Assembly: GCF_053078305.1 (NCBI RefSeq)
Contig: NZ_CP166879.1
Length of the DNA stretch: 64,000 bases
Direction: 5' to 3' (one strand)
A program made the translations under genes and the position numbers. The notes under the pieces were generated by a model that was given only the letters and a program-made list of their open reading frames with translations, was not told where the DNA came from and ran no database searches. Shown here one piece after another: positions 10,919-12,914 of the stretch. How positions within the stretch are numbered: the stretch's first letter is position 1; each line of letters opens with the position of its first letter.

Positions 10919-12121
10919 TCAGGCAGTCAGGCGGCTCGCGTCTTGCGCGATAACCAGTTCTTCGTTGGTTGGGATAACCACCGCAGGACGGGTACCTTCT
11001 TTGTTGATGAAACCAGATTTGCCGAAACGTGCAGCCAGGTTGCGTTCATGATCAACTTCAAAGCCCAGCACGCCCAGTTTGCCCAGAGACAGTTCACGAA
11101 CCATCGCGGCATTTTCACCGATACCACCGGTGAATACAACAGCGTCCAGACGACCATCCATCAGCGCAGTGTAGGCACCGATGTATTTCGCCAGGCGGTG
11201 GCAGTAAACGTCCATTGCGCGCTTCGCGTCTTCTTTCGTCGCGTAGTTGTCTTCAACATAGCGGCAGTCGCTGGTCACTTCGGTCAGACCCAGCAGGCCA
11301 GACTCTTTGGTCAGCAGTTTGTTGATTGCGTCAACGCTCATGCCCAGGGTGTCGTGCAGGTGGAAGATGATCGCCGGATCGATATCACCAGAACGGGTAC
11401 CCATGACCAGACCTTCCAGCGGGGTCAGGCCCATAGAGGTGTCAACGCATTTACCGTTGCGGATAGCAGAAACGGAACCACCGTTGCCCAGGTGGCAGGT
11501 GATGATGTTCAGTTCTTCTACCGGTTTGTTCAGCATTTTTGCCGCTTCCTGGGTTACATAGAAGTGGCTGGTGCCGTGCGCGCCGTAACGACGGATGCCG
11601 TGCTCTTTGTACAGGTTGTACGGCAGGGCGTAGAGGTAAGACTCTTCCGGCATAGTCTGGTGGAACGCGGTGTCAAATACAGCAACGTTTTTGTCTTTCA
11701 GCTGTGGGAAAGATTTCAGAGCTTCTTCGATACCGATCAGGTGAGCCGGGTTGTGCAGCGGTGCAAAAGAAGCTGCATCTTTGATACCCTGAATAACAGA
11801 CTCATCGATCACTACGGAGCTGGTATACTTTTCGCCGCCGTGTACGATACGGTGACCGATAGCAGTCAGCTGCGCAGACAGTTCTGGTTTTTGTGCCAGA
11901 ATAGTATTAACGATAAAGTTGAGCGCTTCGCTGTGAGCGGCGCCTGCACCTAAAGCCGCTTCCTGTTTATTGCCGTCCATTTTCCATTTGATACGTGCTT
12001 CGGGCAGGTGGAAACATTCGGCTAAACCAGAAAGGTACTCTTCACCATTTACTGCATCGATGATGGCAAATTTCAGTGAAGAACTACCGCAGTTCAGAAC
12101 CAGTACTAACTTACTCGACAT
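10919..12121 (-). CDS. ackA: Acetate kinase
   Basis: 400 aa; N-terminal [13 protein letters not shown] acetate/propionate kinase signature. Confidence 0.97.
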
Positions 12122-12440
12122 GGAAGTACCTATAATTGATACGTGGCTAAAAAAACGTCAGGGAGCCATAGAGCGTAGCGCATGATGACACCGACATTTA
12201 TGATTAACATCATGCACTGCAAATTTTTTTTGCATGATGGAAGAAATATCTTGAGTCTATGCCATTTTGCGTAATTTTCAGCCAATGGCATAATGTATAT
12301 GAATTTGACGACTCAATGAATATGTACTACTTAGGCCTTCAGGCTGCTAAAGGATACCTGATAGTGGGTATGGAAGACAAAATGTTTTGAACGTTGTCCC
12401 GCTGAGTTGTGAATTTGCACAAATTTTTGAATCTTTATAT

Positions 12441-12456
12441 GTGAAGTTGAGGTGAA
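12441..12456 (-). promoter_or_regulatory. Exact TTCAC-N6-TTCAC direct repeat (CreB 'cre-tag'-like) in ackA/yfbV divergent control region
   Basis: Plus strand reads GTGAAgttgagGTGAA; reverse complement is TTCACctcaacTTCAC; ackA-pta is a reported CreBC regulon member. Confidence 0.35.
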
Positions 12457-12458
12457 GC

Positions 12459-12914
12459 ATGTCAACGCCGGATAATCGTTCTGTTAATTTTTTTAGCTTG
12501 TTTCGCCGGGGACAGCATTACTCAAAGACGTGGCCGCTGGAAAAACGCCTTGCCCCGGTCTTTGTCGAAAATCGCGTTATCAAGATGACGCGTTATGCGA
12601 TCCGTTTTATGCCGCCGATCGCCGTATTTACTCTCTGCTGGCAGATTGCCCTGGGCGGTCAGCTTGGGCCGGCAGTTGCCACTGCCCTGTTCGCCTTAAG
12701 TTTACCCATGCAGGGATTGTGGTGGCTGGGCAAGCGTTCTGTCACGCCATTACCCCCTGCAATCCTCAACTGGTTTTATGAAGTTCGCGGTAAATTGCAG
12801 GAGTCTGGACAGGTGTTGGCACCCGTTGAAGGCAAGCCTGATTACCAGGCATTAGCTGACACGCTTAAGCGCGCCTTCAAACAACTGGATAAAACTTTCC
12901 TTGATGATTTGTAA
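12459..12914 (+). CDS. yfbV: UPF0208 inner membrane protein YfbV
   Basis: 151 aa with two hydrophobic segments; divergent from ackA. Confidence 0.85.

Follow-up and report, generated by a model that had tools for sequence, protein, structure and literature searches.

The window analysed here, a stretch of 64,000 nucleotides (64 kb), carries the acetate kinase gene ackA (10919–12121, minus strand, 400 aa, RefSeq name), with pta downstream, and the divergent gene yfbV (12459–12914, plus strand, 151 aa), which RefSeq describes as a terminus macrodomain insulation protein. The intergenic region between ackA and yfbV is 337 bp long. The window is E. coli DNA and runs collinear with MG1655 in reverse, the MG1655 coordinate being 2425591 minus the window coordinate, and a 401-bp query over the locus found at least 99% identity in 5424 of 5426 complete E. 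coli genomes, in which the genes are annotated as ackA and yfbV. A motif scan of the window located TTCACCTCAACTTCAC at 12441–12456 on the minus strand, i.e. on the ackA coding strand. This is a perfect cre tag (TTCAC-CTCAAC-TTCAC), consisting of two 5-nt direct repeats 11 bp apart and corresponding to MG1655 2413135–2413150, so that the exact consensus match on the ackA strand claimed by the initial annotation was confirmed. The same annotation had placed the repeat over the yfbV ribosome-binding region and, indeed, the tag overlaps the yfbV Shine-Dalgarno sequence GAGGTG (12449–12454, plus strand) and ends 2 nt before the yfbV ATG. Only its distance of ~340 bp upstream of ackA has to be corrected: the tag covers positions -335 to -320, counted from the first base of the ackA start codon, and 319 nt separate it from this codon, 337 bp being the length of the intergenic region.

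The two half-sites, both reading GTGAA on the plus strand, differ in their history. The ackA-side half-site (12441–12445, minus strand) is GTGAA in 66 of the 78 sequences aligned in this work, with a mean identity of 0.97 (97% across Enterobacteriaceae), while the yfbV-side half-site (12452–12456, minus strand) is a derived state encountered in Escherichia only. The block GTTGAGGT (12446–12453, plus strand), made up of the spacer GTTGAG and the next GT, is invariant in 78/78 sequences, with an identity of 1.0 at each spacer position, and represents the yfbV Shine-Dalgarno block. Thus, the conserved part of the tag coincides with a translation signal, and its conservation requires no CreB. On the minus strand, the tag can be extended to CTTCAC-N5-CTTCAC (12441–12457), a repeat common to the creD, cbrA and cbrB tags. 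The extra C at its outer end is G12457 of the plus strand, which belongs to the yfbV start region G(-2) C ATG TCA(+6) at 12457–12464 (plus strand). A third TTCAC half-site, specific to Escherichia, lies at 12409–12413 on the minus strand, 32 bp from the ackA-side half-site. It is yielded on the ackA strand by a direct repeat with 32-bp spacing, TGTGAATTTG / TGTGAAGTTG (12408–12417 and 12440–12449), the upstream copy of which is Escherichia-specific and reads GTTGTTGTTTTG in other genera. A half-site scan around all eight published tags revealed no systematic additional half-sites.

The perfect tag was unique in the 64-kb window. Dinucleotide shuffles gave an expectation of 0.10, with a match in 10 of 100 shuffles, and the window's own TTCAC frequency gave 0.29; the earlier estimate of ~0.1 chance matches was fair, maybe slightly low. 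For the extended repeat CTTCAC-N5-CTTCAC, 0 of 100 shuffled windows gave a match. Once a perfect tag is present, having both additional C residues as well is a 1-in-16 coincidence, a figure to be read with the extended-repeat criterion being post hoc, drawn from three sites and derived in this analysis, not published. At the scale of a genome, chance alone would yield ~7 to 21 perfect tags, ~1 to 2.5 of them intergenic (the intergenic fraction being our own estimate), versus at least 7 published tags that are intergenic; perfect tags appear to be enriched in intergenic DNA. One-mismatch matches to the cre tag were found in the window at 273, 18393, 20025, 21883, 27614, 35755, 45550, 51686, 57932 and 63423. 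Together with the perfect tag these are 11 matches versus 4.09 expected, a number reached in 0 of 100 shuffles, and the excess may partly stem from codon structure, which the shuffles do not preserve. Two of them fall in non-coding DNA where regulation is of interest, one between lrhA and alaA (18393) and one upstream of nuoA (20025).

The cre regulon has been defined via a genome-wide search for TTCACnnnnnnTTCAC, and ackA-pta is one of its reported members (PMC3962086, PMC3660660, PMC13214185), in agreement with what had been stated about the operon at the outset. The cre tag is bound by CreB in vitro, and the regulon comprises seven activated genes and a single repressed one, malE (PMC3962086). 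According to the reviews consulted, CreBC-dependent expression of ackA/pta in minimal medium goes back to Avison 2001, and flux analysis is reported to show an effect of creB deletion on the acetyl-CoA node (Nikel 2009, as cited in PMC3962086). The eight published members ackA, talA, creD, cbrA/yidS, cbrB/yieI, radC/yicR, malE and trgB/nudF were compared at their MG1655 loci. Every locus contains a single perfect tag, located on the same strand as the member gene. We also checked whether the ackA tag could be located elsewhere, and nothing pointed to this. Since the 64 kb contain no other perfect tag and each member has one own-strand tag, we infer that 12441–12456 is the already published ackA-pta cre tag. 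The tag itself is thus already known, and there is nothing new at these coordinates.

What sets the ackA tag apart is its position. In MG1655, the distance between the own-strand tag and the ATG is 88 nt for yicR, 61 nt for creD, 47 nt for cbrB, 46 nt for cbrA, 22 nt for nudF and 18 nt for malE, versus 260 nt for talA and 319 nt for ackA, so that the ackA tag is not promoter-proximal as are those of six other members (18 to 88 nt). An alignment of the eight tags showed CTTCAC-N5-CTTCAC in those of ackA, creD, cbrA and cbrB only, and not in those of talA, yicR, malE and nudF. The ackA tag therefore resembles the creD, cbrA and cbrB tags in having the same 12-base repeat on the strand of the assigned gene and the same regulator, CreB. 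However, the latter three lie 46 to 61 nt before the start codon, compatible with an overlap with the -35 element, whereas the ackA tag lies 319 nt away; moreover, creD and cbrABC are induced 14- to 50-fold while ackA shows no change of at least 2-fold in the same data set. The creD tag is located within the coding sequence of creC, at its 3' end and finishing 4 nt short of the stop codon, and together with the following ATAACTTCAAATTC it is better conserved across genera than the flanking creC codons.

In its position, the ackA tag is closest to that of talA-tktB in the maeB-talA intergenic region, which is separated from talA by 260 nt and from the start of the divergent gene maeB by 12 nt. 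Like ackA, talA is a central-metabolism member found through the genome-wide tag search, and its tag has a conserved half-site by the maeB ribosome-binding region and another half-site that is perfect in E. coli only. It differs from the ackA tag in that it is devoid of the extra C residues and its perfect form is missing even in E. fergusonii. The talA tag occupies MG1655 2578390–2578405, and its second half-site is TTCAA, ATCAA or TTCGA in Salmonella, C. koseri, E. fergusonii and Leclercia. The malE tag provides another likeness, as it also stands immediately before a start codon (18 nt for malE, 2 nt for yfbV); nevertheless, the malE repeats share the strand of malE, reportedly a repressed gene, whereas those next to yfbV run on the strand opposite to it, and no report describes an effect on yfbV. 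The Pho box, bound by PhoB of the OmpR/PhoB family, consists of 11-bp direct repeats on which a winged-helix response regulator sits as a head-to-tail dimer, and the ackA tag has the same 11-bp direct-repeat periodicity. Yet, the Pho box replaces the -35 hexamer of its target promoter and the ackA tag lies hundreds of bp from the mapped ackA promoter. Compared with a PhoB-type class II site, the 11-bp spacing is present, and neither a known nor a predicted promoter lies directly downstream of the tag on the ackA strand. Altogether, cre tags fall into two classes, one conserved and promoter-proximal and the other young and distal.

The ackA promoter region is marked by an FNR-like palindrome, ATGAT-TAAC-ATCAT (12200–12213), whose centre is 85.5 nt before the ackA ATG. 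A published FNR ChIP-seq peak, with an annotated position of -74.5 relative to the ackA transcription start (PMC3688515), falls at the same place. The centre of the cre tag lies ~240 bp further upstream than the FNR site, that is, at ~ -316 if the FNR annotation is taken at face value. A promoter scan detected neither a sigma-70-like promoter adjoining the tag on the ackA strand nor a convincing proximal yfbV promoter. Candidates for -35/-10 elements around 12415–12445, inspected by eye, had just 3-of-6 matches and were discarded, as was TTGTGAATTTGCACAA (12407–12422) as a CRP or FNR site, its half-site spacing being wrong for both and its bases unconserved. The surroundings of the FNR-like site (12177–12239) contain nested palindromes. 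One of them, AGCGCATGATG / CATCATGCACT (12177–12187 and 12208–12218), belongs to a strongly conserved block upstream of ackA; the other is a 19-nt palindrome overlapping it (12208–12239).

When CreBC is triggered by colicin M, creD, cbrA, cbrB and cbrC are induced with log2 values of 3.8 to 5.7 (PMC3599342). The full list of genes whose expression shifted 2-fold or more in response to colicin M includes creD and cbrABC and lacks ackA, pta, yfbV and talA. This experiment represents one condition in rich medium, and the reported effect on ackA was in minimal medium; therefore, it bounds the size of an ackA effect and not its existence. In the literature we found no genome-wide CreB binding data (ChIP or DAP) for E. 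coli, no site-specific CreB binding data for ackA and no publication linking CreB to yfbV. The supplements available for a Salmonella CreB ChIP-seq paper, which do not include a peak list, contain no mention of ackA or yfbV.

In order to place the tag in time, 77 orthologous ackA-yfbV intergenic regions from Enterobacteriaceae species were collected, giving an alignment of 78 sequences (7 Escherichia and 71 others). The perfect tag occurs at none of the 71 non-Escherichia loci, with one mismatch at 9 of them, two at 54 and three at 8. In other genera the yfbV-side half-site reads GTAAG, GTACA, GTAAC or GTAAA, the version of the whole site in Salmonella or Citrobacter being GTGAAGTTGAGGTAAGCC, and G12454 and A12456 are kept in 10% and 9% of the 78 species, respectively. 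Within the genus, the tag is perfect in E. coli, E. whittamii and E. albertii, and 2 of 6 other Escherichia lineages have one mismatch each. Even in E. coli the yfbV-side half-site can be broken, as A12456G does in 105 of 5424 complete genomes (variant GTGAAGTTGAGGTGAG); their haplotype combines A12438G with A12456G and comes from varied hosts and countries. The strains carrying it constitute a natural, ready-made test of the tag. The creD tag served as a positive control: Salmonella enterica, three Citrobacter species, E. albertii and E. fergusonii, which all carry creBCD, retain its two half-sites unchanged. Exact 30-mers around the tags were found in 5305 (ackA), 4569 (creD), 5186 (cbrA), 3136 (cbrB) and 5416 (talA) of 5426 E. 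coli genomes, counts that do not discriminate between sites because variation in the flanks dominates. As judged from these alignments, the perfect ackA tag is a young, derived trait of Escherichia under weak constraint. The change can be pictured as a remodelling, in the Escherichia lineage, of the 5 nt between the yfbV Shine-Dalgarno sequence and the start codon, from GGTAAGCC-ATG to GGTGAAGC-ATG, which, next to the pre-existing conserved GTGAA, would have completed the CreB tag.

The intergenic region as a whole (12122–12458) is unusually conserved, with a length of 331 to 339 nt in 76 of 78 sequences and a median per-base identity to E. coli of 0.92. It includes fully conserved blocks, e.g. 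12122–12215 and 12370–12400, that are not accounted for by the cre tag. A search of this region for structured RNA retrieved no Rfam family, just a sub-threshold chance match to a snoRNA.

The nucleotides around the yfbV start codon are also the target of an RNA regulator in Salmonella. There, SdhX, a TCA-cycle sRNA, represses yfbV by pairing around the start codon, and E. coli yfbV has been shown experimentally to be refractory to SdhX because of G-2 and A+6 (Miyakoshi et al., PMC6393394). In our alignment, G-2 and A+6 occur in 7/7 Escherichia sequences and C-2 in 71/71 others, so that E. coli lacks the C at -2 and the G at +6 of yfbV that characterize an SdhX target. The G at -2 (12457) is precisely the extra C of the CreB repeat and is part of the remodelled 5-nt stretch that gives rise to the second half-site. 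Hence, by alignment, the derived Escherichia bases of the tag overlap bases that abolished SdhX control of yfbV. The two sites share nucleotides and differ in kind: SdhX acts at the RNA level through pairing that needs C-2 and G+6, whereas the cre tag is a DNA-level protein-binding site. One Salmonella yfbV transcription start sits inside ackA (PMC6393394), which means that the DNA of the tag is transcribed as yfbV leader.

Taken together, we consider it on balance probable that CreB has a genuine site of consensus quality here, which Escherichia acquired recently on the yfbV translation-initiation region, and that for ackA it is at most a remote and weak upstream element. An 11-bp repeat spacing suits the head-to-tail mode of the OmpR/PhoB family, and the tag would be a consensus site for such a dimer of CreB, a response regulator of this family, with its repeats one helical turn apart. 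Because it matches the 10-base consensus as well as the 12-base repeat of creD, cbrA and cbrB, the tag very probably binds phosphorylated CreB. Occupancy by CreB is deduced from these features, and so are the strength and sense of whatever influence it would have on ackA or yfbV. From ~320 bp before the ackA ATG and ~240 bp before the FNR site, bound CreB could act on ackA solely as a remote site and with a modest effect, which would then be the CreBC-dependent activation reported in minimal medium. As for yfbV, with the tag in transcribed leader DNA, CreB could at most obstruct its transcription. Given its Escherichia-only origin, its distance from the ackA promoter and its place on the yfbV ribosome-binding site, the regulatory effect of the ackA tag is probably small.

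A less probable explanation, although one to be taken seriously, is that the tag is a chance match, in which neutral or SdhX-related changes beside the ancestral GTGAA by the yfbV Shine-Dalgarno sequence made a second GTGAA. CreB might then bind it in vitro, like every other consensus site, without any physiological effect on ackA or yfbV, and the CreBC dependence of ackA-pta would be indirect, via the metabolic state. A perfect-match search of a single genome necessarily captures lineage-specific chance matches, and the expected 1 to 2.5 perfect intergenic tags in E. coli (again with an estimated intergenic fraction) fit the number of such sites, ackA and talA. Exactly these 2 of the 8 tags are distant from their assigned gene (319 and 260 nt), abut a divergent start (2 and 12 nt) and are perfect solely in E. 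coli or Escherichia. The lack of a response of at least 2-fold of ackA, pta and yfbV to strong CreBC activation, and the natural E. coli lineage of 105 genomes devoid of the perfect tag, point in the same direction. Against chance speak the two extra C residues of CTTCAC-N5-CTTCAC (the 1-in-16 coincidence, with 0 of 100 shuffles), the third Escherichia-specific TTCAC 32 bp off, the CreBC-dependent ackA/pta expression as related in reviews, and the 30-nt region, which within E. coli is as invariant (5305 of 5426 genomes) as the cbrA, creD or cbrB regions.

It is unlikely, in our opinion, that yfbV is the real target, with CreB on the DNA of the Shine-Dalgarno sequence and start codon blocking elongating RNA polymerase or a proximal yfbV promoter and lowering yfbV expression, which would replace the SdhX repression seen in Salmonella. 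The tag is just 2 nt from the yfbV ATG, the repressed gene malE has its tag 18 nt upstream of its own ATG (PMC3962086), the tag DNA is transcribed, as judged from the Salmonella yfbV start inside ackA (PMC6393394), and the Escherichia-specific block that completes the tag includes the G-2 that abolishes SdhX pairing. However, the repeats point away from yfbV, while at 8/8 published members they are on the strand of the target; strong CreBC induction did not place yfbV on the list of genes with a change of 2-fold or more; we found no publication linking it to CreB; and loss of SdhX pairing also requires A+6, which is outside the tag. In general, roadblocks by response regulators are usually weak. 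Still less likely appears a swap of regulators, by which the remodelling from GGTAAGCC-ATG-TCG to GGTGAAGC-ATG-TCA would have cost the locus its SdhX pairing and given it the full-strength CreB site CTTCAC-N5-CTTCAC, moving the ackA-yfbV pair from post-transcriptional control by SdhX to transcriptional control by CreBC, which acts in such a scheme as a sensor of carbon overflow.

The preferred reading, a recent and remote CreB site, bears on an operon at the heart of acetate overflow and acetyl-phosphate signalling, for which CreBC is routinely cited as a regulator, an assignment based on a single sequence match together with expression differences. To the tag already known, this analysis adds caution about a direct and strong control of ackA by CreB, the overlap of the derived tag with the bases that abolished SdhX control, and the two classes of tags. 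A site that is restricted to Escherichia, remote from ackA and embedded in the yfbV ribosome-binding site suggests a much weaker foundation for the 'metabolic' arm of the cre regulon (ackA, talA) than for its envelope arm (creD, cbrABC), a difference relevant to regulatory databases and to metabolic engineering work in which creB or creC is manipulated.
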